Origin: a bacterium
GTDB lineage: Bacteria; B130-G9
NCBI GenBank assembly: GCA_035527515.1
Contig: DATLAJ010000057.1
Location: 858 to 64,857, forward strand
Direction of reading: 5' to 3'
Length of the DNA stretch: 64,000 bases
The position numbers and the translations under genes are program-made. Every line of letters starts with the position of its first letter. Positions within the stretch are counted from its first letter, which is position 1. Positions 5,201 through 22,000 of this stretch are shown here, piece by piece. The notes beneath the pieces were generated by a model. It saw only the letters and a program-made list of their open reading frames with translations. It had not been told where the DNA came from and did no database searches.

Positions 5201-5474
5201 CGCCAAGGGCTGGTATGCTATGGGCCACGGGGGCGACGGCGTTGGCGTCCTGCTCGACAATGCCGGCAATGACCTCTATAGCCAGATCGATGTTGCGTGC
5301 CTGGGGTATGCCGGACCTTACGATAGAGGGCTTCGCCGGCCGCTTGGGATATTCATCGACGCCGATGGCGAAGACGCCTACACAACGAAGGGAAACAACA
5401 GGTGCTGGGTGGCGGATGAGACCGGCGTGGGCATTGACATGTCCGGCGGAGATACCGGCTGCCTGATGCCGTGA
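2214..5474 (+). CDS. Large secreted protein of 1086 aa. It has an N-terminal signal peptide, PQQ-like beta-propeller blades, and a C-terminal domain of ~13 degenerate ~22-aa repeats ending in G[DN]DxY.
   Basis: The hydrophobic N-terminus MFFVLLPLVVSLAQPA reads as a signal peptide. Blades have the form YFGSxDGxxYAxD...W...SSP. Residues ~720-1080 show periodic GxGxLxDxxG(D/N)DxY(Y/F). An RBS-like ggagg lies upstream. Confidence 0.6.
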   Translation: MCRNRVLIGMFFVLLPLVVSLAQPAQVGEFRATQASGPLLVQQSAQDILADIDWNEVISELDAGFEQEPPLTLDPADVLWYFKAGNWIACKPLVDADGSVYFGSGDGNFYALDSSGNETWRYNVGAPIVADPTFDNQDRIIFGALDGALYCLNKDGTFVFSYWTEGPIFSTASVDLEGNIYFGSDDFYVYKLDSSGEILGRFKTGGWVDSRPTFLSDGRLSFSSYDGVVYVVDQGLNELARYETDTWLTRAFSVGNDDTIYAGGMDGVLYAVDPSGALKWEFDTGRAIFSSPVVVDTGVFFGSNGGVFYSVDVVSGNQRWRYSISSIEIISSPPALGPDSAVYFGVSNHKVYGLSLASEPPWSFDTGVEIDGTALTGKPILGGITMTDDGVAYFGNCGGVLFAVDTNMRRTSFPDRHSLDACAFGASPARLERLTDSPVHFDGVEMKRGRRLPSAEPNAVDMALKTMCMSRKSLDRPTEGYYGPYPYIEKCVLSITEEVLDDAFAGPPFAKELTDQIMFADQELQEYVLTAASPLGPTVLPANYDHFLSDTPLQDAIVQIYSRNHETLSPSQRDELAAQAGHLSLELRKAMAMVLFAMNDASARLDSAFAGVTPNMRSQIYTNVLNAYALCYYNGSFLSGVFDEWLDHVDFEQLLNAGATLLSGVRRAEDFFGSVYDSSTEPILFRFDTPIGFVMVGGAGENLFDSTTNGVRERNALLVDIGGNDVYYGRTAGAAGDDTPISVSIDLSGDDTYESASDGCQGWGLFGIGVLIDAFGDDTYIAQNHCQGASTFGIGVLQDMYGDDIFLGKEMSQGAAACGIGLLSNESGNDIYFSPEYSQGFGFTFGSGVLRDREGDDYYFIGGTDVDFREGTAGQERYVCMGQGFGFGPRRDEEGWQGAGGIGILTDGAGNDYYLGDYFAQGSSYWFSTGILDDKAGDDVYVARRYSIGAGIHNSVGILVDEAGNDEYWSWIVGIGHGLDASVGIVVDVMGDDYYSAKGWYAMGHGGDGVGVLLDNAGNDLYSQIDVACLGYAGPYDRGLRRPLGIFIDADGEDAYTTKGNNRCWVADETGVGIDMSGGDTGCLMP

Positions 5475-5544: not shown

Positions 5545-6747
5545 ATGAAACAAGAAAGCCCGTTCACACCGGGTAGCCCGGTGCCCTATGAGTTCTTCGT
5601 TGGTCGGCAAAAGGAGATTGAAGAGATCCTCACCTCTGTCAGGCGGGCTGCATCCGGGAGGCAGCAGAACGTTTTCTTGGTCGGCGAAAGAGGGATAGGT
5701 AAGAGCTCGCTTGCCCACTACGTGAGAGACCTGGCTGTCAAACAGTACAACTTCCTGACCGTTCACGTTCTCTTGGGCGGAGTAACTACTCTAGAAGAAC
5801 TTGTCCGGAGGGTGTTCGAGCGAATCGCTAATGAAGCTCATGCTCGACGCTGGTTCGAGAAGATTAGCGATGTATTCGGGGGCCGCATACAACAAGTGGG
5901 GTTTTTTGCCGTTTCCCTAGGTTTCAATGCACCCGAGAGTGATCTATCTCACCTGGTTAGAGATTTTCCGGAGGCTATCAACAAAATCAACGAGAAGATA
6001 AAAGATAAAATAAAGGGCATTCTTGTCGTTCTGGACGACATAAACGGGATTTGCAAGAAGGACGATTTCGCAAATTGGTACAAAAGCTGTGTGGACCACA
6101 TAGCGCTCCATTATAGGGGTTTCCCCGTGCTCATCATGCCGGTCGCGATACCGGAGATCAGACTCAGGCTAGGGGAACAACAGCCTTCGCTTATGAGAGT
6201 TTTCAAGGTGGTGGAGATAGAAGGACTCTCTGATGATGAGGTGAGAGCCTTTTTAACGAGAGCATTTGAGAGTGTCGGCGTCAAGGCATCCAGCGAAGTG
6301 ATTGGGGTGATGGTCTCCTATTCAGGTGGGCTACCGATTGTCATGCAGGAGATCGGCGACGCCGTATTCACGGCGAACAAGGATGATCTCATAGACGAAG
6401 ACGACTCAATAAAGGGACTGATGACCGCCGCCGAGACAATGGGGCAGAAGTATCTCGAGCCGAGGGTCTATCAAGCAATTCGTAGCAAGCGTTATCGCTC
6501 AATCTTGCGAAAACTGGGGAGCCTGCGTCCCTTGGCCCATTTCAAGAAAGCAGAGATTCAAAGTAAGCTGAATGTAGATGAGAAGAAGGTTCTCCATAAC
6601 TTTCTGAGAAGGATGAGAGAATTAGGCGTCGTTCTTCAGGATAAGGAAAGGGAACGAGGCTGGTATAAGTTCACGAACCCTCTTTATCCGCTTTACATCT
6701 CGATGGAAGGAATCCGCTACCGCGAGCGCCCCCGGAATAGGAGATAA
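5545..6747 (+). CDS. P-loop NTPase (AAA+ / archaeal-type ATPase-like) with a C-terminal winged-helix-like region.
   Basis: Walker A is LVGERGIGKSSLAHYV and Walker B-like is ILVVLDDINGI. The gene is visibly AT-richer than its neighbours, and a GGAG RBS lies upstream. Confidence 0.5.
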   Translation: MKQESPFTPGSPVPYEFFVGRQKEIEEILTSVRRAASGRQQNVFLVGERGIGKSSLAHYVRDLAVKQYNFLTVHVLLGGVTTLEELVRRVFERIANEAHARRWFEKISDVFGGRIQQVGFFAVSLGFNAPESDLSHLVRDFPEAINKINEKIKDKIKGILVVLDDINGICKKDDFANWYKSCVDHIALHYRGFPVLIMPVAIPEIRLRLGEQQPSLMRVFKVVEIEGLSDDEVRAFLTRAFESVGVKASSEVIGVMVSYSGGLPIVMQEIGDAVFTANKDDLIDEDDSIKGLMTAAETMGQKYLEPRVYQAIRSKRYRSILRKLGSLRPLAHFKKAEIQSKLNVDEKKVLHNFLRRMRELGVVLQDKERERGWYKFTNPLYPLYISMEGIRYRERPRNRR

Positions 6748-6907
6748 TAGAGCAAAATGTCCATCACAGAGACACAGAGAGCACAGAGAAGAACCTAGCA
6801 GATCATGCAGCTGGCATCATGTTCTCTGAGCCTTTTGCGTTCATTAGTGGCGGCGCTCTCTTTCCTCTCTGCGCCCCTGTGGCGCAGGCTCAGAAATTGA
6901 AGGCATC

Positions 6908-7219
6908 TTGACTGAGGCGGCGAGAACGGGGTATAACCGAGGCGTGGAAGTCAGCGACGTCAGGGTTTATCCGTTCGAGTCTAAAGAGGGAGCGAGCCAG
7001 GTTCACGCCTACGCGGATGTAACCTTTGACGGGGAGCTCTTGGTCAAGGGCTTCAAGGTGGTGATCAAGCCCAATGGGGCGCTGTTCGTGGGCTATCCCT
7101 CCGCGAGGCAGCAGGGCGGCGAGTTTGTGCCGACCGTGGCCGCGCTTTCGCCCGAGCTGAGGAGCAAGATACGCGAGGCTGTCGTGGCCAAGTACAGGGA
7201 GTATTTTCCGAAGGAGTAG
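6908..7219 (+). CDS. spoVG: SpoVG family protein.
   Basis: The sequence DVRVYPFE...HAYADVTFDGELLVKGFKVVIKPNGALFVGYPSARQQGGEFVPTVAALSPELRSKIREAVVAKY matches the conserved SpoVG core (ITLD..FVIHDIRVI.G.NGLFVAMPS.R...GEF.DI.HPI....R..I). Confidence 0.8.
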   Translation: MTEAARTGYNRGVEVSDVRVYPFESKEGASQVHAYADVTFDGELLVKGFKVVIKPNGALFVGYPSARQQGGEFVPTVAALSPELRSKIREAVVAKYREYFPKE

Positions 7220-7297
7220 GCAATGCGCTGGCGCAGGCTAACGTCGAAAACAGATTGTGGGACGAGGTTTTAAGCACGGCTTGGAGGGTGAGGTGCC

Positions 7298-7666
7298 ATG
7301 TTCGAGTTGACCGTCAGGAGCTCGTTTGCGGCGGCCCATCGATTGCGGGAATACGACGGCAAGTGCGAGAACCTGCACGGGCATAACTGGGTGGTCGAGG
7401 TGCGGGTGCGGGCAGAATCGCTGAACGACATTGGGCTTGCGATAGACTTCAAGGACCTCAAGGCTGCGACTGACGCGGTTTTGGACCGCTTGGACCACAA
7501 GCTCCTAAACGATGTTGAGCCGTTCAAAGAGATGAACCCCTCAAGCGAGAACATCGCTCGGTGGATTTTTGAGTCTCTGAAGGAGCGTTTAGGCGGCCTA
7601 GTCGTCGGCCTGCGAGAGGTCTCGGTCTGGGAGAACCCCAATTGCTGCGCTACGTATTGGGAATGA
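7298..7666 (+). CDS. queD: 6-carboxy-5,6,7,8-tetrahydropterin synthase (QueD / PTPS family).
   Basis: It carries the CENLHGHNW zinc-binding CxxxHGH signature and the FAAAHRL motif. The length of 122 aa is typical. Confidence 0.8.
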   Translation: MFELTVRSSFAAAHRLREYDGKCENLHGHNWVVEVRVRAESLNDIGLAIDFKDLKAATDAVLDRLDHKLLNDVEPFKEMNPSSENIARWIFESLKERLGGLVVGLREVSVWENPNCCATYWE

Positions 7667-7667
7667 G

Positions 7668-8777
7668 ATGATGCACGAGGGCGCCCGCGAGTTGGACGAA
7701 AGGGCGATCCAGAGCTTCTTTTTCCGCTACCCTCAGATAGTCGAGTCGTTCCTTGTGAAAAAGCACCTGCCAGTCTCGGGCCTTGAGGCCACAAGGTGCG
7801 AAGACGCGTGCGCCTCAGGTAGAGTTGACCTTGCCTTCAGACAGAGAGCGAGCAACTCGATGGTTCTATTGGAGCTGCAATTGGGCCGCGCCAACAGGGA
7901 CCACTACGACCGGCTCGCCTCGTACGTCAACGACTACTCGGAGCGCTTCTCGTTCTCGCGGGTGATCGGCGTTCACTTTGCCGAGGCGTTTCCCAAAACG
8001 CTCCCTCGTTACAGCCCTCCGCTTTACAGGGTTCGTTTTGCCCCGAGCAAAGTGGCGAGACTGGCCGAGGAGCTCCAGGCCCAGGAGGAGAGGCTCTTGG
8101 GACTGAGTTGCCCAAAGCCGCCCGTCTCTGCCTTTGCCAGACTCTCATACCTCAACGGGTTCTTCGCATTTATGAGGAAGCGCACGTTCGCCACGTTCCG
8201 CGAGGTGGTCGAAAACGTTGCGAACCTCGCCAAGAACCCTCGTCAGATACGCAATCCCGAATACCGCGCGCGGCTCTGGGTGAAGTTTGGGGAGAGTTTT
8301 GGGCTTCTGATTCGGCAAGAGGGCAGGATAGTGCTGACGGAGCTGGGGAGGGCATACGCCGCCTCGCTGGACGCCTCGTTCCCGTGGGCGCTCACGGCTC
8401 GGCAGAGGCGGATACTGATCGCCGGGCTCTCTGCCGCTCGCTGCACAAACGGCCACAAGTTTGGCATTTTCTGCATCCTGAAAGCTGCGGAGCAATCGGA
8501 GGAGAGGGCGCTCGAGACGGCTGATTCGCAGATGCAGAGCTTCGTGTCGTTCTGCCGCTCCAGTCGCCGATGGGTGAGAGTCTCGCAGCGTGCGTCGTTT
8601 GTTTGGTATGGCAATTACGCTAGGGAGTTGGGGCTTTGCCCGGACAGCGGACTTTCGGGCGCAAGGCTTCAGCTGACCGCGTTCGGGCGAGAGGTCCTTG
8701 CGCTATTCTCGAGGCAGTTTGCGGCGTTTGAGATGGAGCGGCGATTGCTTTTGAGAGGGACAGGCGGTATCCTTTGA
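7668..8777 (+). CDS. Hypothetical protein with a possible PD-(D/E)xK-like nuclease fold at its N-terminus.
   Basis: This is a 369-aa ORF in the coding frame directly upstream of the array. The N-terminal GRVDLAF...VLLELQLG pattern loosely resembles restriction-endonuclease-like motifs. I could assign no confident family. Confidence 0.3.
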   Translation: MMHEGARELDERAIQSFFFRYPQIVESFLVKKHLPVSGLEATRCEDACASGRVDLAFRQRASNSMVLLELQLGRANRDHYDRLASYVNDYSERFSFSRVIGVHFAEAFPKTLPRYSPPLYRVRFAPSKVARLAEELQAQEERLLGLSCPKPPVSAFARLSYLNGFFAFMRKRTFATFREVVENVANLAKNPRQIRNPEYRARLWVKFGESFGLLIRQEGRIVLTELGRAYAASLDASFPWALTARQRRILIAGLSAARCTNGHKFGIFCILKAAEQSEERALETADSQMQSFVSFCRSSRRWVRVSQRASFVWYGNYARELGLCPDSGLSGARLQLTAFGREVLALFSRQFAAFEMERRLLLRGTGGIL

Positions 8778-8794
8778 GTAGGATGAGGCACAAC

Positions 8795-10048
8795 ATGTGG
8801 CTCTTAATAACGACTAAGACGACGCATTACTGGTGGGCCAACTACAGCTGCGCTGACGGGAAGAATTTCATGTTGGCGCTGGGTTTGCAGCGAGTTCTGC
8901 GCGTGGACGGCACCATCGGCGAATGGGACCCCGGAACGAGTCCGGAGCATCCGGACGGGGACCGCGAGTGGAAGGAGCACAAGCTGCTTCACTGCAAGGC
9001 CACCTCGAACTTCAGGGAGTACGCGCAGGGGAACAGGGGGCATGAGCGATTTAGGATTTCAGTCTCACAAACCGCGCGGCAGATCGAGTTCAAGGTCAGA
9101 CTTGAGTCTGTTTGGCCGCAGCCGATTCCCTTCCCGGTGCCGGTGCCTTTCCCGCAGCCAGTCCCTTTGCCGGAGCCGCCGGTCATACCGGTCACGCCGG
9201 TCACCCCAGTTACGCCGGTCACACCGGTCACACCAGTCACGCCGGTCGTGGAGCCGGGTGCGGAGCGGGTACCCACGGGGGTTCTGAGGCCGACTCCGTT
9301 AAAAGGGAAGTTCAAGGTCTATCTTCGGTCAAGAGCCCTGAATAGATACAAGCCTAGGCTCCCACGAGACGGGAACAGGGACATATATATACACGGACAG
9401 CCGCTCTGGGAACGGGAGGCCGAGGCGGCCTTTGAGCAACCGCCTGAGGCAACGATCAAGCTCCGTGATGTGCCGATCGGGTGGGCAGTGCTCGAGGTGT
9501 GGGCAGAAGATGACCACGGGCATGATCTCAGCAAGAAGAAGACGATGCAGGTGTTTGTGTATCCTGAGATCTGGTGCAGGCGTGCGCTGGTTCCGGTATT
9601 TGGTCCCCATCTTGGGTATCGGACGAGGTGGGTGCTGCTGCCGCCGAGGGCGGAGCTGCCGCCGGTCACGCCGTTGCCGGAAGGTCCGCAGCCGCTGGTG
9701 GAGCCGATTGTCGAGCCGATACTCCCCGACGAGAAGGGCGTCTATCACATCCGCGCCGCCCTCTGGAAGCAGTCCGACGGCTACTTCGTTGTCGGTAATC
9801 CTGAAGACCGCTACGACCCCAGCAAGATCAAGGACTACAAAGTCCAATCCGACTTCAAAGTCGATGAGCAGAGGTTGACCCCGGAAGACCAACCACTTAT
9901 ATCTTGCGGGCCCTGGCAGACGGGTACAGAGGACTCGCGTTGCGCTCTTCCGGAACACGAAAGCGAACGAATAGACGTCATTGTTCTGGAGCCTGCCGAG
10001 GTAAAAGCGCTCACTGACGAGGTGCTGCCCATTCAGAAGCTGAAATAA
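8795..10048 (+). CDS. Array gene A1, full length. It has a conserved N-terminal domain, a Pro-rich (PFPVPVPF / (PVT)6) linker, and a conserved C-terminal module with a Cys-bounded variable loop.
   Basis: ATG at 8795 is where homology with copy A2 begins (caacatgtggctcttaataacg). The stop is 4 nt before the RBS of B1. The C-terminal 170 aa are shared with the downstream cassettes A3', A4' and A5'. Confidence 0.65.
   Translation: MWLLITTKTTHYWWANYSCADGKNFMLALGLQRVLRVDGTIGEWDPGTSPEHPDGDREWKEHKLLHCKATSNFREYAQGNRGHERFRISVSQTARQIEFKVRLESVWPQPIPFPVPVPFPQPVPLPEPPVIPVTPVTPVTPVTPVTPVTPVVEPGAERVPTGVLRPTPLKGKFKVYLRSRALNRYKPRLPRDGNRDIYIHGQPLWEREAEAAFEQPPEATIKLRDVPIGWAVLEVWAEDDHGHDLSKKKTMQVFVYPEIWCRRALVPVFGPHLGYRTRWVLLPPRAELPPVTPLPEGPQPLVEPIVEPILPDEKGVYHIRAALWKQSDGYFVVGNPEDRYDPSKIKDYKVQSDFKVDEQRLTPEDQPLISCGPWQTGTEDSRCALPEHESERIDVIVLEPAEVKALTDEVLPIQKLK
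9178..9249 (+). repeat. In-frame 9-bp tandem repeat (ccggtcacg)n, about 7 units, encoding (PVT)n in A1.
   Basis: The repeat is read directly from the sequence and is absent from A2. Confidence 0.8.
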
Positions 10049-10058
10049 GGAGGTGGAA

Positions 10059-11441
10059 ATGACTTGGCTGCGACTGGCGATGGTCGTTCTGTTGTCCGCG
10101 GTATTTGCGTTGACGTCTTGCGCCGTAGGGCAAGCGGCTGATTATCCCTGGGTCTATTACTTCGAGAGGCCGGACTTCCCGCAGATACACTGTGCCTTCG
10201 CGGATACGGACGGGAGCGTGGTTGTCTCTACGGGAGACTGGCTTGACACTGGGTATGATTGGGTGACCGGGGATATCGTGTACTACTACCGCTCAGCGGG
10301 ACTGTATCGGATCATTTGCGGGACTGTTGAACCTATTGAGTGCCCTGCGAATACCTTTGTTCTCGACGCGGCCGTCGATTCAGAAGGCACGACTTGGCTG
10401 CTTATTGCGCATGGGCGTAATGGATATGTCGAGACCGGCAGTTTGGCCGGTCCGACTTGCGCAGACACGCTCGGGTCCGCTGTCGGTTATCGGAATTTCG
10501 GACTTTACCTCGAGAACTACAGGTTTGCGCGCCTCGAAGGGGCTACAGTGATTGAGGATAAGCAGATAACGGAGGCAGTGCCGACGACCCCTATCACAAT
10601 GTGTTGCGACCCGTGGGGGAGGGTGTATGTTTTCAGTTGGCGGTGGTCGGACAATAGGGATATTGAGGAGAGAAGGAGCTTTGTTTCTTGGTGGTCGGGC
10701 GGCAATCCGGATGACTTACACGTCTCCGAAATCTCGAACATCCTCCATGGCGCAAACATGGATTACTATGGGGCTCGTTATCCCGCCTTCGGGCCGGACG
10801 GTCTGGCCTACTTCGTTGTGGGGAACGCGTGGGACTTCGCAGCCTCCACAGAATACGCGGTCCTATGCCTTGACCCTAAAACTCAGTCTTGGGAGGTCTA
10901 CGACGAACAGGTCTGCAGCTTGCTAGGCTGCGCAATACGCTACTTCTGCGTGGATTCAATGAACGTCAAGTGGTTCGGGACAGAAGACGGGCTGGTTCGG
11001 TTTGATGGCCAGAGCTGGTCTCGGTACACAACGGGGAACACTGGGCTTCCTCACAATCTAGTGCGGCAAATTCAATACGATCAGGCCGAGGGAGTGTATT
11101 ATGTTGTCACGCAGGCCGACCCACAGTATCGGACAGCCTTCAGCGTTCTCTCCCCCGGAGGCCGACTTGTTGGGGGTCCTTTGTCGTCCCCGCGGGAAGG
11201 GCTCCCTTGGTACCTACCCCAGATTTACAGGGATGTGAGGGGAACGTGGTGGCTGCTGTTGCCTCCCAACTACAGGGCGACAACAACACCATACGATGTG
11301 TATGCGTACGACGGCCGGGGCGTGTTTCGTTGGGACAGCAGGGTCTCGTTCGATAGGCCAGACGTCCACATCGGATTCATCGGGAGCGACGCAGAGGGAC
11401 GCGACTTCTGTGTGGGGCCTACATGCGTGATGATCTGGTAG
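10059..11441 (+). CDS. Array gene B1. It is a beta-propeller lipoprotein (Reg_prop-like repeats) ending in CVMIW.
   Basis: An aaggagg RBS lies 6 nt upstream of ATG. The lipobox reads ALTSC. Motifs DYPWVYYF, NVKWFGTEDGLVRFDGQSW..TGNTGLPHN.VRQIQYD resemble two-component-regulator propeller repeats. The C-terminus is FCVGPTCVMIW. Confidence 0.65.
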   Translation: MTWLRLAMVVLLSAVFALTSCAVGQAADYPWVYYFERPDFPQIHCAFADTDGSVVVSTGDWLDTGYDWVTGDIVYYYRSAGLYRIICGTVEPIECPANTFVLDAAVDSEGTTWLLIAHGRNGYVETGSLAGPTCADTLGSAVGYRNFGLYLENYRFARLEGATVIEDKQITEAVPTTPITMCCDPWGRVYVFSWRWSDNRDIEERRSFVSWWSGGNPDDLHVSEISNILHGANMDYYGARYPAFGPDGLAYFVVGNAWDFAASTEYAVLCLDPKTQSWEVYDEQVCSLLGCAIRYFCVDSMNVKWFGTEDGLVRFDGQSWSRYTTGNTGLPHNLVRQIQYDQAEGVYYVVTQADPQYRTAFSVLSPGGRLVGGPLSSPREGLPWYLPQIYRDVRGTWWLLLPPNYRATTTPYDVYAYDGRGVFRWDSRVSFDRPDVHIGFIGSDAEGRDFCVGPTCVMIW

Positions 11442-11731
11442 GAGGATTGCTGGCCTTGGCTGAGAAGATTGACGTGAGTCGCGTGGTGACCGCGATCGTG
11501 TCGCGGATTCCGGAGTATCTTAGGACGTGCGAGGTTTGCCTTCGCACGCAGGACGACGTCACGGCTCAGGAGTCCACGCTGCTCTATGGGTCGAAGTTCT
11601 GGGCCGTGATGAATGACACCGACCGCGCTGGCAACATAACTGGGAAGCAGCGGCTGTTCCTGGAGATCGGCACGCCTCTTCAGTATTTCCTTGCGCACGA
11701 TAACGAGAGCGGCCAGCTTCAGAAGTTCAAC

Positions 11732-13129
11732 ATGTGGCTCTTAATAACGACTAAGACGACGCATTACTGGTGGGCCAACTACAGCTGCGCTGACGGGAAG
11801 AATTTCATGTTGGCGATGGGTTTTCAGCGAGTTCTGCGCGTGGACGGCACCATCGGCGAATGGGACCCCGGAACGAGTCCGGAGCATCCGGACGGGGACC
11901 GCGAGTGGAAGGAGCACAAGCTGCTTCACTGCAAGGCCACCTCGGACTTCAGGGAGTATGCACGGGGGAACAGGGGGCATGAGCGATTCAGGATTTCAGT
12001 CTCACAAACGGCGAGGGAGATCGAGTTCAAGGTCAGACTTGAGTCTATTTGGCCGCAGCCGATCCCCTTCCCGGTGCCAGTGCCTTTCCCGCAGCCGGTC
12101 CCTTTCCCGCAGCCGGTCCCTTTCCCGCAGCCGGTCCCTTTCCCGCAGCCGGTCCCTTTCCCACAGCCGGTCCCTTTGCCGCAGCCGGTCCCTTTCCCAC
12201 AGCCGGTCCCTTTCCCACAGCCGGTCCCTTTGCCGCAGCCGACCCCTTTGCTGGAGCCGACCCCTTTGCTGGAGCCGCCGGTCACGCCGGTCGTGGAGCC
12301 GGGTGGGGAGCGGGTACCCACGGGGGTCCTGAGGCCGACTCCGTTAAAGGGGAAGTTCAAGGTCTATCTTCGGTCAAGAGCCCTGAATAGATACAAGCCT
12401 GGACTCTCCCCGGACGGGAATAGGGACATATATAGACATGGACAGCCGCTCTGGGAGCGGGAGGCGGAGGCCCCCTTTGAGCAACCGCCTGAGGCAACGA
12501 TCAAGCTCCGTGATGTGCCGGTTGGTTGGGCAGTGCTCGAGGTGTGGGCGGAGGATGACCACGGGCATGATCTCAGCAAGAAGAAGACGATGCAGGTGTT
12601 TGTGTATCCTGAGATCTGGTGCAGGCGTGCGCTGGTTCCGGTACTTGGTCCCCATCTTGGGTATCGGACGAGGTGGTTTTTGCTGCCGCCGAGGGCGGAG
12701 CTGCCGCCCGTGACGCCGCTGCCGGAAGGTCCGCAGCCGCTTTTGGAGCCGATTGTGCAGCCGATACTCCCCGACGAGAAGGGCGGCTATCACATCCGCG
12801 CCGCCCTCTGGAAGCAGTCCGACGGCTACTTCGTTGTCGGTCCTGGGGGCTCCCGCTACGACCCCGCAACAATCACCGACTACAACGTCCAATCCGAATT
12901 CAGCGTCGATGCGCAAGAAGTGAGAGACTCGGAGGGCAATTTCTTGGGCTATTGCGGGCCGAACAATGAGGACCCAGTGACCGGCCAGCCGTCAGATAGG
13001 TGTGCAAACACTCTCCCGCAACACGAGAGCGAGCGAGTAGATGTGATCCAGCTCAAGCCCCTGGAAGTGAAAAGCCCCTTTCCAACGATCGTGTCCGATG
13101 AAAAGCTGATACAAGGAGGGAAGAAATGA
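11732..13129 (+). CDS. Array gene A2, full length. Its Pro-rich linker is expanded to ~12 PQPVPF repeats.
   Basis: ATG at 11732 is where homology with A1 begins. The reading frame is open upstream to 11423, but that stretch has no similarity to A1. An 18-bp in-frame tandem repeat runs 12085-12280. The stop TGA overlaps the ATG of B2. Confidence 0.6.
   Translation: MWLLITTKTTHYWWANYSCADGKNFMLAMGFQRVLRVDGTIGEWDPGTSPEHPDGDREWKEHKLLHCKATSDFREYARGNRGHERFRISVSQTAREIEFKVRLESIWPQPIPFPVPVPFPQPVPFPQPVPFPQPVPFPQPVPFPQPVPLPQPVPFPQPVPFPQPVPLPQPTPLLEPTPLLEPPVTPVVEPGGERVPTGVLRPTPLKGKFKVYLRSRALNRYKPGLSPDGNRDIYRHGQPLWEREAEAPFEQPPEATIKLRDVPVGWAVLEVWAEDDHGHDLSKKKTMQVFVYPEIWCRRALVPVLGPHLGYRTRWFLLPPRAELPPVTPLPEGPQPLLEPIVQPILPDEKGGYHIRAALWKQSDGYFVVGPGGSRYDPATITDYNVQSEFSVDAQEVRDSEGNFLGYCGPNNEDPVTGQPSDRCANTLPQHESERVDVIQLKPLEVKSPFPTIVSDEKLIQGGKK
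12085..12280 (+). repeat. In-frame 18-bp tandem repeat (ccgcagccggtccctttc)n, about 9 copies plus 2 variant units, encoding (PQPVPF)n.
   Basis: The repeat is read directly from the sequence. A1 has only ~2 units at the equivalent place. Confidence 0.85.
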
Positions 13130-14457
13130 AAAAACGGTCGCTGGTCATGCTGATTGCGCTGTGCGCGGTGATCGGTTCGCCGCCTTTTGGGCTGTCCCAG
13201 CAAGTAGATTACCCCTGGGTGCATTATTTCGACCGTCAGATAGGTTGCGTCTATGCCGACGCGGAATGGAACGTGCTCGTGTCCACCGGGGACTGGAACT
13301 ACACCACCGGCGACGGTACTGGGGCCATCACGTATTGGTATTTGTCCGACGGAGTGTTCAAGATTTGGGAGGGCGAGATTGACAAGATCGAGTTCCCCGC
13401 CGGCACCTTGGTCTTGGGTTTTGCGACCGATTCGGGGGGAACTACATGGGCGCTCTTCGGAGAAGGTCAGAACCACACGCAACACGCGGAGGATCTGCCC
13501 TGGAAGTGTCAGGCGACGGTCTTGGACTCCGTTTCCCGATCTCCGCTCATTGCCAATCCCAGGTTAGCACGCATCCAGGGAACAGGCATTGTCGTGGATA
13601 GTGAGCTGACCGCTTCGATCCCGGGGAAGCCGGTTGCCATCGTTTCGGACGTTTGGGGCACAGTCTTTGTGATCAGTTACCAGGTCAGTTACCGGGACGT
13701 TGACTCGGGTGGTGCGAGGTACTTCGTTTCTTGGTGGCCTGGGGCTGAGCCGGGCTCGCTCCGTATTCAAGAGGTCCCCCATGTTTTTGACTACGTCATC
13801 ACTTCGCGTCGACCGTCTTTTGGACCAGACGGCCTAATGTACCTGCTCGCGAGCAACACGGAGGGGATCTACTACGCTCGGTCTCCCTCTGGGGTGCTGG
13901 CGTTGGACCCCCAGGATGAGGAATGGTGTGTCTATTATGGAGGCGATAGGGCGATCTATTGCGTTTATGTGGATCAGTTTAACGTGAAGTGGTTCGGGAC
14001 TCAGGACGGCCTCTTCCGGTTGGATGCCGGAAACTGGGCCTCCTGGACGACCGCGAACAGCGGACTGCCCTATAACGGCGTGCGACAGATAACCTATGAC
14101 GAGATCGACAACGTGTATTACGTGGTCTCACAGTATTGCGACAGCGCAGTTGGAGACTGCTACGGAGCTTTCGCGGTGCTTTCCGGTGATGGGCAACGTG
14201 TCGGGCCACCGCTGAACCTCCCCGACTGCACCGATCTGTGGATACCGAAGGCGCACCGATCCGGAGCCACTTGGTACTTGATGCCTTATGTCATCTACGA
14301 CGTGATCTACTCTTATGATCACAGAAACGTACGAGCTTGGCACCTCCGGGATTGGGTCAGCGTTGGCGCCGACACGTTCGACTTATCCATCGGCCCGGTC
14401 GGGGACCGGCGCACCTTTCTTGCCCTGCACCTGTGCAGCTGCGTTATGATCTGGTAA
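13126..14457 (+). CDS. Array gene B2. It is a beta-propeller secreted protein (Reg_prop-like) ending in CVMIW.
   Basis: It starts with the signal peptide MKKRSLVMLIALCAVIG. The DYPWVHYF, NVKWFGTQDGLFRLD and LPYNGVRQITYDEIDNVYYVVS motifs are conserved with B1, B3 and B4. The C-terminus is LHLCSCVMIW. Confidence 0.65.
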   Translation: MKKRSLVMLIALCAVIGSPPFGLSQQVDYPWVHYFDRQIGCVYADAEWNVLVSTGDWNYTTGDGTGAITYWYLSDGVFKIWEGEIDKIEFPAGTLVLGFATDSGGTTWALFGEGQNHTQHAEDLPWKCQATVLDSVSRSPLIANPRLARIQGTGIVVDSELTASIPGKPVAIVSDVWGTVFVISYQVSYRDVDSGGARYFVSWWPGAEPGSLRIQEVPHVFDYVITSRRPSFGPDGLMYLLASNTEGIYYARSPSGVLALDPQDEEWCVYYGGDRAIYCVYVDQFNVKWFGTQDGLFRLDAGNWASWTTANSGLPYNGVRQITYDEIDNVYYVVSQYCDSAVGDCYGAFAVLSGDGQRVGPPLNLPDCTDLWIPKAHRSGATWYLMPYVIYDVIYSYDHRNVRAWHLRDWVSVGADTFDLSIGPVGDRRTFLALHLCSCVMIW

Positions 14458-14460
14458 CCG

Positions 14461-15015
14461 ATGAGCATCACGCAGGTGTTTGTGTATCCGGAGATACGAT
14501 GTGCAAAAAAGCTGGTATTCGAGCGTGATCCGCTTGGACTGGGATTTATCAGGATGAGGTGGAAGTTGCTGCCGCCGACAGAGCTGGTGCCGCCGGTGAC
14601 GCCGCTGCCGGAGGGTCCGCAGCCGGAGGTGGGACCGATTGTGCAGCCGATACTCCCCGACGAGAAGGGCGGCTATCACATCCGCGCCGCGCTCTGGAAG
14701 CAGTCCGACGGCTACTTCGTTGTCGGTCCTGGCGGCTCCCGCTACGACCCGGAAACCATCACCGGCTACAACGTCCAATCCGACTTCAGCGTCGATGAGC
14801 AAAAACTCGGCCGAATTGAGGATTCGGACAAGATCTGGCGGATGCTGTACTGCGGGCCAAACAACATGGATCAGAGATTTCACCCTCCGGAGCTTTCCAC
14901 CGACTGCGTCAACGCCATTCCTATATATGAAAGCGAGCGGATAGACGTTATTACATTGAAGCTTGAAGTAAAACCGCTCATTGACGAGGGCCTGCCCGTT
15001 AAGAAGCCGAAATAA
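14461..15015 (+). CDS. Array cassette A3'. It is a 5'-truncated copy of gene A containing the C-terminal module only (184 aa).
   Basis: ATG lies 4 nt after the B2 stop. It begins MSITQVFVYPEI, homologous to the internal KTMQVFVYPEIW of A1 and A2. It has its own variant of the CGP...C loop, and the gene-A N-domain and Pro linker are absent. Confidence 0.55.
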   Translation: MSITQVFVYPEIRCAKKLVFERDPLGLGFIRMRWKLLPPTELVPPVTPLPEGPQPEVGPIVQPILPDEKGGYHIRAALWKQSDGYFVVGPGGSRYDPETITGYNVQSDFSVDEQKLGRIEDSDKIWRMLYCGPNNMDQRFHPPELSTDCVNAIPIYESERIDVITLKLEVKPLIDEGLPVKKPK

Positions 15016-15041
15016 GGAGGTCGAAGACGACTAGGCTGGAA

Positions 15042-16421
15042 ATGGCCATTCTGGTTCTGCTGTCCGCGGTATTTGCGTTGACATCTTGCACTGTAGCGCA
15101 AGCAGGTGATTACCCCTGGGTGCATTACTTCGATACTCCCAGCTGCGCGGATCATCCTTCGATCCACTTCGCGTTCCCGGATGGCGAGGGCAATGTCATC
15201 GTGTCAACGGGTGACTGGGTCCCCGATTACTGGCCTAATGAGAAATACTATGACTACCGCCCGGGAGCTTTATACCGAGTGAATGAGGGGGTCAAGCAGA
15301 CAATCGACGCACCCGAGAACACGTATGTGCTTGACGCTGCCGTGGACGGTCAAGGCAGGACCTGGATTATATCTGCCGAGGCGAGCAGTTACCACGTGTA
15401 TTACCGGAACGGCCTGTGCGTTGAGGATAAGGGGTACCCTCTTCCCCAGAGTTTCGGCTATGGGCGATACCGATTCCCGGAGTCTCCCCTTGCCGAGGCC
15501 TACGGCGGTCTTGACAAGCCAGCCTTGGGAACGCTCCGGGCTGGGCGCTTTGTCCGACTTCCTGAAGTGACCGAGGCGATTCCCGGGACACCACGTGGGA
15601 TTTGCGTTGACGCTCAGGGTCACGTCTTCTTGATGACCTCGGAATGGGATCCTTGGGAGTTCACCGCATACTTCGTCTCGTGGTGGGGAGCCGAAGGGCC
15701 TGAATCACTTCGAACTCTCGACCTGTGGCAGATCATTCCGAACTCCTGGCTTCGAGATTATCCGCAGTTTGCTCCGGATGGCGTCGCATATCTTCTCATC
15801 GTGTATAATGCGGGCGGTCCGGGGGCTGGTTACGACTACGCCCTTCTCCGCCTCGATCCTAAGACCGGCGAGTATTGTGTTTACCGGAATACCGATTATG
15901 CGTATCTTGACTCCGAAGTTCGATGCTTCTACATAGACCCAATGGGCATCATCTGGCTCGGCACCGAAGATGGCCTTGTTCGTTTCGATGGGCAGACGTT
16001 GAGTCGTTGGACGACTGAAAACAGCGGCCTTCCCTATAATGCCGTCAGGCAAATCGTGTACGATGAGATCGATGACGTCTATTATGTGATCTCAGAAAAG
16101 GATATCGGTTGGGACACCTCTATGCTATTCAGCATGCTGTCACCGGTGGGCGACGCGATAGGTGCCCCTTTTATCCTACCTACGGTCGCAAACCGACTCT
16201 TTCAATTCTCCAAGGTGTTTCGTGACGGCAGAGGCGTGTTCTGGCTCTGTCCCTATGAGGCGAGCAGGGCTTACTCCTATGACCATGAACGAGTCATGCA
16301 GTGGTACGCAGCCGACTGGATGGAGCTCGTGAGCAACGTCCACTACGTCGGCTCGACTGCTTCAGGCCGGACATTCTGCGTAGCGGGAGGATACGGCGCC
16401 TCGTGCGTGATGATCTGGTAG
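15042..16421 (+). CDS. Array gene B3. It is a beta-propeller lipoprotein ending in CVMIW.
   Basis: It shares the signal-peptide motif AILVLLSAVFALTSC with B4. The ATG of B4 reads ACG here, so the start shifts to 15042. Reg_prop-like motifs are present and the C-terminus is GASCVMIW. Confidence 0.6.
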   Translation: MAILVLLSAVFALTSCTVAQAGDYPWVHYFDTPSCADHPSIHFAFPDGEGNVIVSTGDWVPDYWPNEKYYDYRPGALYRVNEGVKQTIDAPENTYVLDAAVDGQGRTWIISAEASSYHVYYRNGLCVEDKGYPLPQSFGYGRYRFPESPLAEAYGGLDKPALGTLRAGRFVRLPEVTEAIPGTPRGICVDAQGHVFLMTSEWDPWEFTAYFVSWWGAEGPESLRTLDLWQIIPNSWLRDYPQFAPDGVAYLLIVYNAGGPGAGYDYALLRLDPKTGEYCVYRNTDYAYLDSEVRCFYIDPMGIIWLGTEDGLVRFDGQTLSRWTTENSGLPYNAVRQIVYDEIDDVYYVISEKDIGWDTSMLFSMLSPVGDAIGAPFILPTVANRLFQFSKVFRDGRGVFWLCPYEASRAYSYDHERVMQWYAADWMELVSNVHYVGSTASGRTFCVAGGYGASCVMIW

Positions 16422-16435
16422 CGGAGAAGAAGAGG

Positions 16436-16963
16436 ATGCAGGTGCTTGTGTACCCGCAGATTAGGTGCAGGCGTGCGCTAGTTCCGGTATTTGGTCCTCA
16501 TCTTGGGTGGCGCACGAGGTGGGTTCTGCTGCCGCCGAGAGAGAAGGTGCCGCCCGTGACGCCGCTGCCGGAGGGTCCGCATCCGGTGGTGGGGCCGATT
16601 GTGCACCCGACACCCCCGGACGAGGAGGGCGTCACCACAATCGAGGCCGCGCTCTGGAAGCAGTCCGACGGCTACTTCAAGGGCGATAGATACGACCCCG
16701 CCGGCATCACTGGCTACTGGTACCAGAGGTTTCACTTCAGCGTCGATGAGGAATGGCTGAATGCGGATGCACACAGAGACCGTGGTGATCCCTTGATCGC
16801 GTGCGGGCCAAATGACGGCGAACCGGGGGGGGAAGGCCTGTGCGGCCTTCCGGAGCATGAGAGCGAGCGGATAGACGTTATTACCCTCAAGCGCGCCCCG
16901 ATAATAGCCCTCACTGACGAGGCGCAGCCCGTTAAGAAGCTGAAAAAAGGCGGTCGAAGATGA
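16436..16963 (+). CDS. Array cassette A4'. It is a 5'-truncated gene A C-terminal module (175 aa).
   Basis: ATG at 16436 lies 15 nt after the B3 stop. It begins MQVLVYPQIRCRRALVPVFGPHLGWRTRW and carries a variant CGPNDGEPGGEGLC loop. Its stop overlaps the ATG of B4. Confidence 0.55.
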   Translation: MQVLVYPQIRCRRALVPVFGPHLGWRTRWVLLPPREKVPPVTPLPEGPHPVVGPIVHPTPPDEEGVTTIEAALWKQSDGYFKGDRYDPAGITGYWYQRFHFSVDEEWLNADAHRDRGDPLIACGPNDGEPGGEGLCGLPEHESERIDVITLKRAPIIALTDEAQPVKKLKKGGRR

Positions 16964-18327
16964 CTAGGCTGGAAATGGCCATTCTGGTTCTGCTGTCCGC
17001 GGTATTTGCGTTGACATCTTGCACTGTAGCGCAAGCAGGTGATTACCCCTGGGTGCATTACTTCAAGCCGCCTGATATGCGGCAAGTCCACTGCGCGTTT
17101 GCTGACGCCGAGGGGAACGTGATCGCTGCTACTGGTGACTGGAATTACAGCACATACAACTGGGGCACCGGGGATACCACCTATTGGTATCTGTCCGATG
17201 GGATATTCCAGATTCGCGAGGGAGACATAGAGGCCGTGCAGTGCCCGGCGTCCACATTCGTCCTGGACTGCGCGACAGATTCTGCCGGAAGGACGTGGGT
17301 GTTGTTCGCCGAAGGTCATGATTATAGGCAACACGTGTGGGATCCCTGGCGGTCTGCTGCGCTGAGAGGTCCTTGTGCGGCATCCGACGTGGGCTATAGG
17401 CACTTTCGCTGGCCGACCGGTATGTGGTCGTATCTAACCGACTATAGGCTGGCTACAATCGAGGAAGGCGGCTTGCGAGAGCAGCGTGAGCTATTGGACA
17501 GAGTGCCGGCCGAACCGGTCGTAATGGCAGCCGACCCTCAGGGCCGGATATACGTCATGAGTTGCGAGGACTGTGACGACCGCATTGCTGATTTCTTCAT
17601 TTCTTGGTGGTCTGGACATGACTCCAGTTGCATACGTACAATATGTTTGTGGGATCTTATTCCAGATTCCTGGGCCGCTGACTATCCTAAGTTCGGTCCA
17701 GACGATCTTGTGTACTTCCTCATAAGGATCGCGGCCGGAGATGCGAACTCTAGGTTCGCCGTGCTCTGCCTTGATCCAGAGACTGAGGAGTATGAGATTT
17801 GGAGGGCCTCCGATTACGCATTTCTCGATTCGGAGGTCTATTGCTTCTACGTGGACCAGTTCAACGTTAAGTGGTTTGGGACCGACGATGGCTTGGTTCG
17901 GTTTGACGGCGAGACCTGGATGCGCTTCGCGTCGGAAAACAGCCCACTGCCTTACGATCGGATTAAACAGATCCAATATGATGAGATCGACTATGTCTAT
18001 TACATCGTCTCGGCAGCAGAGGATTGGAGAGAACATCCAGACGACTACGTGGCGCTCAGTGTATTCTCCCCAACGGGGCGGGCGATATATGAGCCATCGT
18101 ATATGCCCGGGGGACCGTTGCTGCGGCGCGGATCAGGCAACATATGGTATCTCATGCCGGGCTGGGATGATGATCTAGTTTACGTCTATGATCACGTGAG
18201 ACTCAGCGAATTCAGCTTGCGAGATTGGGTGGACGTCCCGGAATACTCCGCTTGGGATTTCGCCATATCTCCTACGACCTTAGGGCAGACATTTTTTGCT
18301 AATGACTACTGCGTAATGATCTGGTAG
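16960..18327 (+). CDS. Array gene B4. It is a beta-propeller lipoprotein ending in CVMIW.
   Basis: It starts MTRLEMAILVLLSAVFALTSC. About 110 nt of its 5' end are near-identical to B3. Reg_prop-like motifs are present and the C-terminus is ANDYCVMIW. Confidence 0.6.
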   Translation: MTRLEMAILVLLSAVFALTSCTVAQAGDYPWVHYFKPPDMRQVHCAFADAEGNVIAATGDWNYSTYNWGTGDTTYWYLSDGIFQIREGDIEAVQCPASTFVLDCATDSAGRTWVLFAEGHDYRQHVWDPWRSAALRGPCAASDVGYRHFRWPTGMWSYLTDYRLATIEEGGLREQRELLDRVPAEPVVMAADPQGRIYVMSCEDCDDRIADFFISWWSGHDSSCIRTICLWDLIPDSWAADYPKFGPDDLVYFLIRIAAGDANSRFAVLCLDPETEEYEIWRASDYAFLDSEVYCFYVDQFNVKWFGTDDGLVRFDGETWMRFASENSPLPYDRIKQIQYDEIDYVYYIVSAAEDWREHPDDYVALSVFSPTGRAIYEPSYMPGGPLLRRGSGNIWYLMPGWDDDLVYVYDHVRLSEFSLRDWVDVPEYSAWDFAISPTTLGQTFFANDYCVMIW

Positions 18328-18335
18328 CGAAGACG

Positions 18336-18650
18336 ATGCAGGTGTTTGTGTATCCTGAGATCTGGTGCAGGCGTGCGCTGGTTCCGGTATTTGGTCCCCA
18401 TCTTGGGTATCGGACGAGGTGGGTGCTGCTGCCGCCGAGAGAGAAGGTGCCGCCCGTGACGCCGCTGCCGGAGGGTCCGCATCCGGTGGTGGGGCCGATT
18501 GTGCACCCGACACCCCCGGACGAGGAGGGCGTCACCACAATCGAGGCCGCGCTTTGGAAGCAGTCCGACGGCTACTTCAAGGGCGATAGATACGACCCCG
18601 CCCTGGTTGCCCGGCATCCTACGGATCAGCACATTGTTCGGCTCAATTGA
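18336..18650 (+). pseudogene. Array cassette A5'. It is a terminal, doubly truncated remnant of the gene A C-terminal module.
   Basis: The first ~105 nt are 100% identical to A1 at 9541-9650. Homology to A4' ends abruptly at 18603 after GDRYDPA, and the frame then runs into unrelated sequence and stops at 18650. The Cys loop and the ESERIDVI end are missing. Confidence 0.5.
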
Positions 18651-19053: not shown

Positions 19054-22000
19054 ATGTCATTGAGATGGGTCACGATCGTATGTTCGGTGTTCGTCTTTGT
19101 CATCGTTGGTTTGACCGTGTGCCGTGCTGGCGAATGGTCGGACTATGAGATCACACAGGATACAACTTGGGACCCGAGCGAGAACCCAATTGTCCTGATG
19201 CGTGATCTTACTATCCACAAGGTGAATCCTGATGATCCTAGCGACAGAGTTAAGCTGACGATCAATCCTGGGGTTGTAGTAAAGCTTGCCTCACACGTTG
19301 ACATATTTGTTGAGGGGCTTGTGGTCGCGGAGGAGGCGCTTTTTACCTCGATAAATGACGACAGCACGCCTGACGGAGCGTGGGAGGACAGTTCAGGAAC
19401 GCCACAGATAGGTGATTGGAACTCTGTCCACATCTACAACTACAATGCCATCTTCTCGGGCTGCACGTTTCGCTACGGCAAGTCAATAGAGATCGATGAT
19501 TGCTCGCCCACTTTTTACGGCAACCTGATCGAGCAATTCAGTCGATATGGTCTGTATATTGTTGCCCAGGACACGCTTGTCAGCCCGGTCATCGAGTGCA
19601 ACAAGATATTTGACATCGGCGAGCCTTACACCGATGACAATCCTGAGAACGGGAAGTTCGACCCCGGCCAGGAGGAGTATCAAGACCTCGACATGAACGA
19701 CCAGTATGACGCTGGCATCGGCATCTATTGCTACACACCACCTTTCTATTTTGGCCCGTGCGTTCCGCTGATTCGGTTCAACCAGATTGTTATGAGCACC
19801 GATCGCAGCGTCGCTCGGGGCAGCTTGCCAATAGTGTTTGAGAACACTCTGCCGATCATGCTCGACGTCGGGGGCTCACCGGAGAATCCGGTCCCTGATG
19901 GTAACCTGATTCGGCAAAGGGCGGATGATGACCGCTTCGTCTCGGCCATCGGCATAAAGGGCTATGTCAAGCCTGGCGAGCTGGACGATGATACCGGCGC
20001 TTACAAATACGTGGACTACTTCCTCCCGCTCGTTGACGACAGAGCGGTGGCCTCGGACCAGGTCTCGCCGACAAACCAACATCTCCCCTACATAGTTCTG
20101 GAAGACCTCGTCATCGCCGATGGCTGCGACCTATCCGTGCCGCCCAATTGCGTTGTCAAGTTCAGCGCGGACACGAGCGTCGAGATTCTGGGGACGATCG
20201 AGACCTCCAACCTGTCCGCATCCCGCAGCTATTTCACATCGCTTCATAACGACGTTTACGGGCTGAGGGTGCCTGGCAGCAACAGCCACCCCGCTCCTGG
20301 CGACTGGTATCAGTTCAGGATTTGCTGCGAGGATTGCCTGATCCAGAACAGCAACTTCAGCTACGGGACGTTCGTCAAGATCGATCAGTGCTGTCCGACA
20401 ATCATCAACAACACGGTCTCCAACTTCTATCTTTATGGTCTTTATGTATATGCCGAGTCGCACGCAGCAAAGCCGGAAATATCGCGAAACGTGATACAGG
20501 ACTGCGGCCACGTGGTCGATGCGGCAAGCGGCATTTACGAGGGCGGTGGCATCTGCCTCGAGACGGGGCGCGATTATTTGGGCCCGTGCGAGCCGACGCT
20601 TCAGGGCAACAGGCTGCTTAGTAATCATGGCTATCCATTGACGCTTCTTGGGACGTGCGACCCTGTTTACATCAACAACACCTTGATGGGCAACTCCTAC
20701 CGAGCCGTCGCGATAGGCGGGACTATACGCGGCCGGGGAGCGACGTGGGATGATGTAACCGGCTATCACTATCCTTACGTGGTCATAGACCCCGTGGTGG
20801 TGGCGGGAGGCTACAGGGCCGCCAACGGGCTTTCTACTGCCATCATCTCGAGCGACACGCTTGATGGCATCCTGGACACCCTCGTTGACGAGACCGCCGA
20901 CTGGAAGGCGAACGTCCTGACTGGCTCGATGCTGACTCCCAACACCGACCGGCCCGAACAGTTCGAGATAGTGTCCAACACCAGAACCTCGATTGTGGTT
21001 GGCTCCGACGTGTCCGGCATCGCCCAAGGCGGAGACCCCTACGAGTTCGTCGTGAAGGATACGGTCGTGGAAGTCCCTCTTGGAACGATAGTCAAGTTCG
21101 CCAAGGGGATGAGCATTTATGTGAAGGGTCAGCTCGAGCTCAACGGCACGACCCGCGACAGAGTCTATTTCACCTCTTTCAATGACGATTCCGCCGGCGG
21201 CTCCGTTCTTCTGTCGGGCTCAACGCCGATGCCTCAGCCGGGCGATTGGGAATACTTCAAGGTCGAGAACGACAACAACAAGATCGAGGAATGCATCTTC
21301 AAATACGGCACTTCGATCTACATAGATAGCTGCTCGCCGTTGCTCCAGCACAACGCCATCGCGATGTTCTCACGGGCGGGTATCCACTGCTACGCGCACA
21401 GCGCGAAGGCCTCGCCCTCCATCCTCAACAATGCGATCATGTGCAATCGCAATGGCGTTCGTTGTGAGACGGACACTGGGTTTACCGATCCCAATGGCGC
21501 GATGCCGATGATCCACTCCAATGACATCGTCAGCAACGAGGAGTATGGGGTCGTGAACCTCCAAGAGGGGGCAGAGATCGACGCCGTGCTCAACTGGTGG
21601 GGCGCCGTCGATGGCCCATCGGGAGATGCACCCGGAAGCGGAGACGGCATATATGACGTGTCCCTCTACAAACCATTCCAGGGCGAGCCCAACTTCGAGG
21701 CCGATTCGGCCCCTCCGGTGTTCTCGGATGTGTTCCCTGCGCCGTATTCGGTCGATGTGCAGACGACCACTATCATCATGTTGACGGTTACGGACGTCGG
21801 CAAGGGCATTGACACTAATTCTGTCTCGATAAAGGTCGATCATGGCGACGGTGAGGGCTTCGTGTCCGTGATGAAGGACGGCGAAGACCTCCACTACAAC
21901 GGGGGCTATGTGAGCCGCGAGAACGTCGCGAACGGCTACCGTTACAGCTATGTTCCCGGACGGTCATTCGCCGCAAACAGGCAGGTGTGCGTCAAGATGC

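Follow-up and report, generated by a model that had tools for sequence, protein, structure and literature searches.

A tandem array of 5'-truncated gene ends and exported β-propeller genes, possibly the displaced cassettes of a polymorphic effector system

Polymorphic toxin loci with orphan cassettes, such as Rhs, CdiA-CT/CdiI and MafB-CT/MafI (PMC3482391, PMC4436062), in which toxin-immunity cassettes recombine onto a constant 5' gene body (PMC3482391), are the closest described counterparts of the gene array reported here. The array lies in a 64,000-nucleotide stretch of DNA from a bacterium of the GTDB lineage B130-G9 (contig DATLAJ010000057.1 of assembly GCA_035527515.1, positions 858 to 64,857 of the forward strand), hereafter called the window, and alternates copies of two genes: gene A, which ends in a module made of a conserved head and a variable tail, and gene B, which encodes an exported β-propeller. 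As in polymorphic toxin loci, the variable 3' end of a large gene is followed by a partner gene, and a row of 5'-truncated copies of that 3' end lies downstream, each with a partner of its own. Recombination uses a conserved stretch that immediately precedes the variable part, and cassette types are common to several species. A large protein without a signal peptide, combined with an exported partner, can be added to these likenesses.

The array differs from polymorphic toxin loci in that trafficking, repeat, processing and toxin domains of known kinds are absent from A, a single domain has diverged into the various tails, and the partner is a β-propeller of about 450 residues. The array also ends in a head-only copy, giving homology on both flanks of each tail and B, and the window contains no full-length gene. 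Nuclease-immunity pairs of the colicin E and S-pyocin type resemble the array in having homologous effector domains and homologous partners that have diversified in parallel; however, they are plasmid-borne or single loci without cassette arrays, with small cytoplasmic immunity proteins and known catalytic domains. What is new is the protein families and the cassette arrangement with homology on both flanks; the general principle is already known.

Gene layout and the giant A gene

The array is real: it occupies positions 8795-18650 and reads A1-B1-A2-B2-A3'-B3-A4'-B4-A5', all on the plus strand, at the end of a longer stretch (5545-18650) in which every gene has this orientation and the genes are closely packed. 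Open reading frames and self-BLASTN confirm the repeated unit of A tail and B, the gene order and the coordinates given in a preliminary description of this DNA. A1 (8795-10048, 417 residues) is a medium-length 5'-truncated fragment with an N-domain, a proline-rich linker, a middle domain, a head and a tail; the linker (9116-9247) consists of 9- and 18-nucleotide tandem repeats of the PVT/PVPFPQ type, as identified with Tandem Repeats Finder. A1 adjoins the stop codon of a 369-residue gene upstream, and its homology to relatives begins 9 nucleotides 5' of the ATG at 8795. A2 (11546-13129) is the longest A fragment in the window; its open reading frame can start at 11423, inside B1, and is homologous to A1 from 11728. 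The same program found about 12 copies of an 18-nucleotide tandem repeat, encoding (PVPFPQ)n, in the A2 linker (12053-12277). A3' (14461-15015, 184 residues) and A4' (16436-16963, 175 residues) are short forms with intact open reading frames, made of a head and a tail. A5' (18336-18650, 104 residues) is a terminal, head-only fragment that is also cut at its 3' end, just after the sequence RYDPA, at the same point as in other genomes. The four genes for exported β-propellers are B1 (10053-11441), B2 (13126-14457), B3 (15042-16421) and B4 (16960-18327).

At two of the four A/B junctions (A2/B2 and A4'/B4), the B start overlaps the A stop as ATGA; the gaps are 4-10 nucleotides for A1/B1 and 26 nucleotides for A3'/B3. 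Three of the four junctions have the sequence GGAGG at the A stop codon or overlapping it; A4'/B4 has GGCGG instead. The last A codons (encoding GGKK or GGRR) are the place where the Shine-Dalgarno sequence of B falls, with a clear one there only at the A2 junction. The ATGA overlaps and the position of the Shine-Dalgarno sequence suggest translational coupling of each tail to its own B, and the preliminary description, which had proposed such coupling from the overlaps and short gaps, was right in this respect. On the other side of each B gene, the next short A copy starts 3 (A3'), 14 (A4') or 8 (A5') nucleotides past the preceding B stop. Read-through fusion from B into the short A copy was considered and rejected, only one of the three junctions being in frame.

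The origin of the A copies became clear from homologues elsewhere. P0022, a 1338-residue protein encoded on metagenome contigs L002-L004, aligns over its last 450 or so residues with A1 and A2, and the alignment extends upstream of the MWLLITTK sequence taken as a start. A second large protein, P0028 (at least 1097 residues, 44% identical to P0022), stands at the head of L058, a similar locus in which its gene is interrupted. As A homologues in other metagenomes make up the C-terminal 450 or so residues of proteins of at least 1097-1338 residues, every A copy in the window is 5'-truncated. Projected onto P0022, A2 starts at residue 890 or thereabouts, A1 at about 960 (aligning to residues 960-1338) and A3', A4' and A5' all at about 1170, while the single A gene of the syntenic relative L001/L061 starts at about residue 911. 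Judged from these alignments, the array stacks up nested 3' ends whose 5' truncations fall at different points, with a B gene of its own after each one. The preliminary description had called A1 and A2 full-length genes of an expressed type; they turn out to be fragments of a gene for at least 1097-1338 residues.

Downstream of P0022, the gene order is B (461 residues), a short A copy (176 residues) and B (453 residues). In L058, the B gene is followed by an A fragment that starts in the linker and runs off the contig. Downstream 5'-truncated cassettes with partner genes are found in the window array, in L002 and in L063. In L063, the A fragment that follows B starts at about residue 823 of P0022, farther upstream than any copy in the window. 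The large forms of A have neither a signal peptide nor a transmembrane segment. When metagenome and viral contigs were scanned with the P0022/P0028 alignment, no longer contig carrying the large A gene turned up, and a search with the N-terminal 1005 residues of P0022 returned only P0022 itself. In both L002 and L058, the large A gene is preceded by two small paralogous genes, of 151 and about 250 residues, without database match. These two loci, from the same metagenome, are 91% identical over positions 1-1112 of each, which contain the two small genes; identity falls to 75% or less in the large A gene (44% at the protein level), marking a sharp boundary between conserved and divergent sequence where the giant gene begins.

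Directly after the B1 stop codon lies a 104-nucleotide relic of a different A-type linker (EKIDVSRVVTAIVSRIPEYLRTCEVCLRTQ, 11442-11545, plus strand). It matches the linker of the P0028 type, from the large A gene of L058; in L058 this sequence also comes after B, and protein P0029 begins with it, which indicates an older B-to-A junction, overwritten by a later event. The relic is joined to the longer A2 fragment at an imperfectly matching stretch of about 14 nucleotides.

The A family is small, with 21 proteins found in an exhaustive profile search of 1.84 billion representatives; a word-indexed search with A1 gave only two matches and did not include the window's own A proteins. All A/B loci recovered come from uncultivated bacteria (metagenome-assembled genomes and metagenome contigs).

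Head, tail and recombination

The A module comprises about 170 residues: a conserved head of about 90 residues that is similar among copies within a genome, a proline-rich stretch and a small cysteine-containing C-terminal domain; the part after the head, of about 80 residues, is the variable tail. There are three conserved cysteines in the module and a hypervariable stretch between conserved blocks; in the tail, two conserved cysteines flank the hypervariable stretch. The head corresponds to a homology block common to all A copies (MQVFVYPE...RYDP), the first copy of which lies at 9545-9820 and the second, located by self-BLASTN and alignment, at 12590-12865, both on the plus strand. By self-BLASTN, A1 and A2 are 92%-96% identical, the heads (the first 270 or so nucleotides of the C-terminal module) share 84%-93% nucleotide identity between copies, and short blocks at the 3' end of A and the 5' end of B share 79%-89%. 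Most of each B body is not alignable at the DNA level. All repeat copies are in direct orientation.

Identity along the array is patchy, as the preliminary description had noted, and exact blocks of 103-128 nucleotides and a maximum chi-square test bear out its mosaic character. A block of 111 nucleotides is identical in A1 (9538-9648) and A5' (18329-18439), 8,791 nucleotides apart, and one of 128 nucleotides is common to A4' and A5'. A5' equals A1 for its first 110 or so nucleotides and is A4'-like thereafter, with the switch at alignment column 122 (maximum chi-square p = 0.0005); A4' has a similar breakpoint at the same place. A third exact block, of 103 nucleotides, covers the 5' ends of B3 (15029-15131) and B4 (16962-17064), including the signal peptide region and about 14 nucleotides before the B3 start; outside it, the two proteins are about 42% identical. 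Gene conversion appears to act also at the boundary between A tail and B start.

Comparison with other genomes separates the history of the head from that of the tail. The head follows the genome: heads are 69%-90% identical within the window and 88% within L002, but 51%-60% when the two are compared. Tail and B follow types that occur in more than one genome. Identity to the L002 pair, whose B is the one after the 1338-residue gene, is 64%-68% for the A1 tail and 69% for B1, as against 41%-54% to their own neighbours (41%-42% for B1 against the other B proteins of the window). For the A2 tail, identity to the L001 tail is 72%. The B proteins themselves are mosaic: B2 has a C-terminal third of the L001 type and B4 one of the L058 type, while B1 is of the L002 type over its full length. 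A head-only fragment cut after RYDPA closes the array not only in the window but also in L001/L061, L015 and P0029. Because of this terminal copy, every tail and B unit has head homology on both flanks. These comparisons show the array to be a recombination mosaic in which the head has been homogenised within the genome by gene conversion and new units of tail and B have been exchanged by recombination in the head; the types of tail and B are ancient and occur across species.

Possible functions of the tail and propeller units

We tentatively favour the reading, to which we give a chance somewhat short of even, that the array is the displaced or "orphan" cassette array of an undescribed polymorphic effector/partner system. 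As A has no known trafficking domain and the tails are versions of one homologous domain, we describe the locus as working like a polymorphic toxin system and not as a member of that class. Each exchange of a tail and B would push older units downstream as 5'-truncated fragments of different lengths, and the terminal head-only copy would supply the right-hand homology arm. A would be a secreted effector whose tail acts outside the cytoplasm of the target cell; B would be the cognate periplasmic binder of the A tail, most likely an immunity-like neutraliser, and the repertoire of the window would comprise four partner genes and spare tails. A large A protein without a signal peptide next to an exported B is the layout of periplasm-acting effectors and their exported immunity proteins, such as Tse/Tsi and Tle/Tli of type VI secretion systems. 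Of two analogies drawn in the preliminary description, that with orphan C-terminal toxin/immunity arrays fits better, given the nested truncations, the partner that goes with each tail and the homogenised homology region; that with pilE/pilS or vls is unlikely.

A number of results weigh against this reading. Zhang et al. (2012) describe polymorphic toxins by an N-terminal secretion or trafficking domain or presentation repeats (signal peptide, TPS, PAAR/VgrG, LXG/WXG, MuF, RHS, FilH and others), a C-terminal swap between unrelated toxin domains, downstream truncated cassettes that share homology with the main gene and have a partner gene each, and an adjacent downstream partner gene whose variation goes along with that of the C-terminal domain. 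The third of these features is present in the array. Neither a trafficking domain nor presentation repeats were found in P0022 or P0028, though export by an undescribed route is conceivable, and the tails are not unrelated toxin folds but one family (22%-72% identity, with the motifs CGP...C...LP.HESERID). As to the partner gene, B always follows a tail, and the identity matrices of tail and B are correlated over 12 tail/B pairs (Mantel r = 0.47, p = 0.002). The nearest neighbour is the same for tail and B in only four of the 12 units (two reciprocal pairs, plus the one-way match of A2 to L001), so physical linkage remains a confound for this co-variation. The 64-kb window contains no full-length copy of the large A gene. 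Searches of A, P0022, P0028 and the two small upstream genes against Pfam, NCBIfam, PHROGs and PADLOC gave no match, and these library searches found no toxin domain, trafficking domain or secretion apparatus. P0022 had no match among PDB sequences either, and a profile of the short A forms gave a chance-level sortase match only (E about 0.5). The AlphaFold2 model of A2, based on an eight-sequence alignment, is unusable, with a predicted local distance difference test score (pLDDT) of 39. The closest structural relatives of B are glycan-sensing propellers, and about 450 residues is large for an immunity protein. Finally, the array is static at the consensus level in five assemblies, with no evidence of ongoing exchange.

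The placement of A and B outside the described toxin, pilin and Vls-type families, proposed in the preliminary description, agrees with the searches of Pfam, NCBIfam, PHROGs, PADLOC and the PDB. On the whole, that description is largely right about the layout and partly right in its interpretation. If the cassette reading holds, the locus is a polymorphic effector/partner system built from two protein families without described relatives, and the cassette-displacement logic of the Rhs, contact-dependent inhibition and Maf loci has arisen on an unrelated scaffold, with a large exported propeller as the partner. The natural tail and propeller pairs, four in the window and at least eight elsewhere, would be usable for studying the co-evolution of binding specificity. 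If the reading is wrong, the array is still a clean natural example in which concerted evolution of one segment adjoins ancient trans-species polymorphism in the following one.

The properties of B bear on a second reading, which we consider doubtful: that the array is a diversified family of binding proteins, in which B, a secreted or periplasmic glycan- or ligand-binding propeller, is the payload, and the A module a co-translated docking or adaptor partner, with no immunity involved. Each B protein has an N-terminal signal sequence and no further hydrophobic segment. The proteins are 36%-43% identical to one another within the window, and the most variable part, the central region, is 14%-48% identical, a point in favour of a repertoire of binders. 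Against a cut-off of 20.4 bits for the Pfam family Reg_prop (PF07494), B3 scores 33.2, B4 20.3 and B1 16.9; B2 gives no score. The AlphaFold2 model of B3 is an all-β propeller (pLDDT 82, predicted template modelling score 0.83). With this model, Foldseek retrieves BT4663 at E = 1e-10; the best fold matches are 4a2l, 4a2m and 3ott, belonging to the periplasmic glycan-sensing propellers of BT4663 and BT4673, and a profile search against the PDB matches 3v9f and 4a2l. B is a Reg_prop β-propeller with a signal peptide, B3 combining a score above the gathering threshold with the propeller model, and the propeller is probably closed by conserved strands, N-terminal YPW and C-terminal CVMIW. L063 (1416-3044) encodes a divergent B homologue that, at 542 residues, has an extra N-terminal region of about 100 residues and ends in ELIVW instead of CVMIW.

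Reg_prop repeats and a periplasmic propeller fold are what B shares with the hybrid two-component sensors BT4663 and BT4673 of Bacteroides, and the β-propeller lectins of Streptomyces umbrella toxins illustrate that diversified extracytoplasmic propellers can confer binding specificity, carried as they are on partner proteins of the umbrella particles (PMC11062931). B differs from both: it is a stand-alone single propeller with a signal peptide that is always found coupled to an A tail, and it lacks a kinase or regulator part as well as a trypsin-like UmbA domain. The B repertoire could still target a larger particle formed by the large A protein, comparable to the umbrella toxin lectins, or serve in substrate capture, and the intactness of all four B genes, their good ribosome-binding sites and the giant secreted propeller proteins that flank the array fit a family of binders. 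However, B has a signal peptide and A has none, so the two would meet only if A were exported by an unknown route. Simple expansion of paralogues also does not explain why the A fragments are nested and 5'-truncated or why a head copy ends the array. In addition, B1 is nearer to a foreign B than to its neighbours.

A further reading, which we regard as unlikely, goes beyond the comparison with toxin loci. The array would belong to a new polymorphic system of extracellular recognition or antagonism, unrelated to known toxin, pilin and secretion families. A giant effector without a signal peptide would carry a small disulfide-containing hypervariable tip, read by a matching exported β-propeller. 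Units would be swapped, added or lost through the flanking homogenised heads, and the effector would leave the cell by a new export route.

The state of the copies argues that an array of neutral tandem duplicates, in which unequal crossing-over multiplied an A-B pair whose copies are slowly diverging and decaying, with occasional gene conversion and a layout without function, is improbable. No stop codon or frameshift interrupts the four B genes or A1 to A4', despite synonymous divergence (dS) of 0.8-1.4 between copies. Pairwise ratios of non-synonymous to synonymous substitution (dN/dS) range from 0.13 to 0.76, the minimum being that of A2 and L001, the closest cross-genome tail pair. The dN/dS values of 0.4-0.7 between paralogues indicate only moderate constraint, a point in favour of decay, as are the static array in the five assemblies, the dead fragment A5' and the relic at 11442-11545. 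In the closest relative, which is syntenic, moreover, the sole B gene is broken into open reading frames of 309 and 120 residues, at one and the same position in two assemblies (L001, 10921-12255; L061, 2553-3887); a frameshift pseudogene is likely, if the two assemblies do not go back to the same reads, and decay does then occur in some lineages. On the other hand, the units predate the split between species, as L002 has matches to B1 and its tail, L001 to the C-terminal third of B2 and its tail, and L058 to the C-terminal third of B4. The junction between B stop and short A copy is common to very divergent genomes, and the methionine at the start of the head is conserved with it, even inside the long forms (KKTMQVF, RKMTMKVF). 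By these measures, the reading frames of the copies in the window are maintained and not decaying.

Neisseria pilE/pilS, Borrelia vlsE/vls and Treponema tprK resemble the array in their 5'-truncated partial copies, conserved and variable segments and mosaic tracts. We nevertheless consider programmed antigenic variation, in which silent short A cassettes would convert one expressed A gene and so change a surface epitope at high frequency, very improbable. The clear conversion tracts would suit it, as would the pair of conserved tail cysteines on either side of a hypervariable stretch. Those systems have one complete expression site, silent cassettes lacking start codons and partners, and variation in the population. 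In the array, no full-length large A gene is available as an expression locus in the window, every cassette has a complete B gene with its own ribosome-binding site, and the short A open reading frames have start codons. In L066, a short A copy of 174 residues and its B have no B or long A gene in about 10 kb upstream, the contig ending just after B. No promoter or terminator signal above background was found in the array. Instead of being silent, the short A-B pairs are probably co-transcribed with upstream genes, and co-transcription with translational coupling is at least as likely as silence. The preliminary description had called the short copies promoterless-looking; a reading of them as promoterless silent cassettes is not supported, given the lack of any excess of promoter or terminator signals in the array, the operon-like packing, the intact open reading frames, dN/dS below 1, the conserved methionine and the L066 pair.

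Five independent assemblies from different samples (L006-L010) contain all or most of the array in the same order and at 99.9%-100% identity, and the identical array gives no sign of rapid switching; at the consensus level, none of the five shows a chimeric tail. In L006, the sole assembly to span the array from end to end, nothing differs except that the (PVPFPQ)n stretch in the A2 linker is one 18-nucleotide unit shorter, so the population is polymorphic here through slippage. L008 has three single-base differences and L009 a few, at a contig edge. Species do differ in copy number: between the same flanking genes, L001 has a single unit and the window four.

A phage or tailocin host-range module, in which the large A protein would be tail-fibre-like and the array would supply alternative receptor-binding tips with accessory genes, is the least credible reading, for although the large protein with its variable C-terminal tip, the mosaicism typical of tail fibres and the two small paralogous genes in front of it in L002 and L058 could be seen in this light, PHROGs and a tblastn search of 50,697 phage genomes gave no match and IMG/VR no true relatives, the Sec signal of B is unlike fibre chaperones, the repeats are direct only, where Mu Gin, P1 Cin or diversity-generating retroelements have inverted or template repeats along with an invertase or reverse transcriptase, and the neighbours are housekeeping genes, with no phage genes in the window. 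The readings as neutral duplicates, as a switching system and as a phage module are each contradicted by specific results.

Genomic surroundings

Apart from housekeeping genes, the window contains several giant secreted propeller proteins. The array is flanked by three very large proteins with PQQ/BamB-like β-propellers (12-2096, 2214-5474 and 19054-24594); one of them, of 1846 residues, also has β-helix and choice-of-anchor-like parts, and its gene is kept downstream of the array in L001. No tRNA gene was found in the first 30 kb of the window. In L066, genes for tRNA-Glu and tRNA-Gln (9243-9401) lie about 600 nucleotides upstream of the A-B pair, and a flagellar gene cluster adjoins. Insertion in an integron-like manner or as a tRNA island was considered and rejected, the L066 pair being the only one that tRNA genes adjoin.

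Two genes precede the array on the same strand. The first (5545-6747) encodes a 400-residue STAND/AAA_16 ATPase with weak BrxD/SngB-like matches, and the second (7668-8777), the 369-residue protein next to A1, has a weak NucS-like (PD-(D/E)XK) match in its N-terminal part and faint PDC-S11 matches. The two could be a defence gene pair, to go by these similarities; the matches to defence models are only weak, and no link of either gene to the array was seen outside this lineage. The 369-residue gene is absent from the other array contexts in L015, L063 and L066, and is syntenic with the array in L001.

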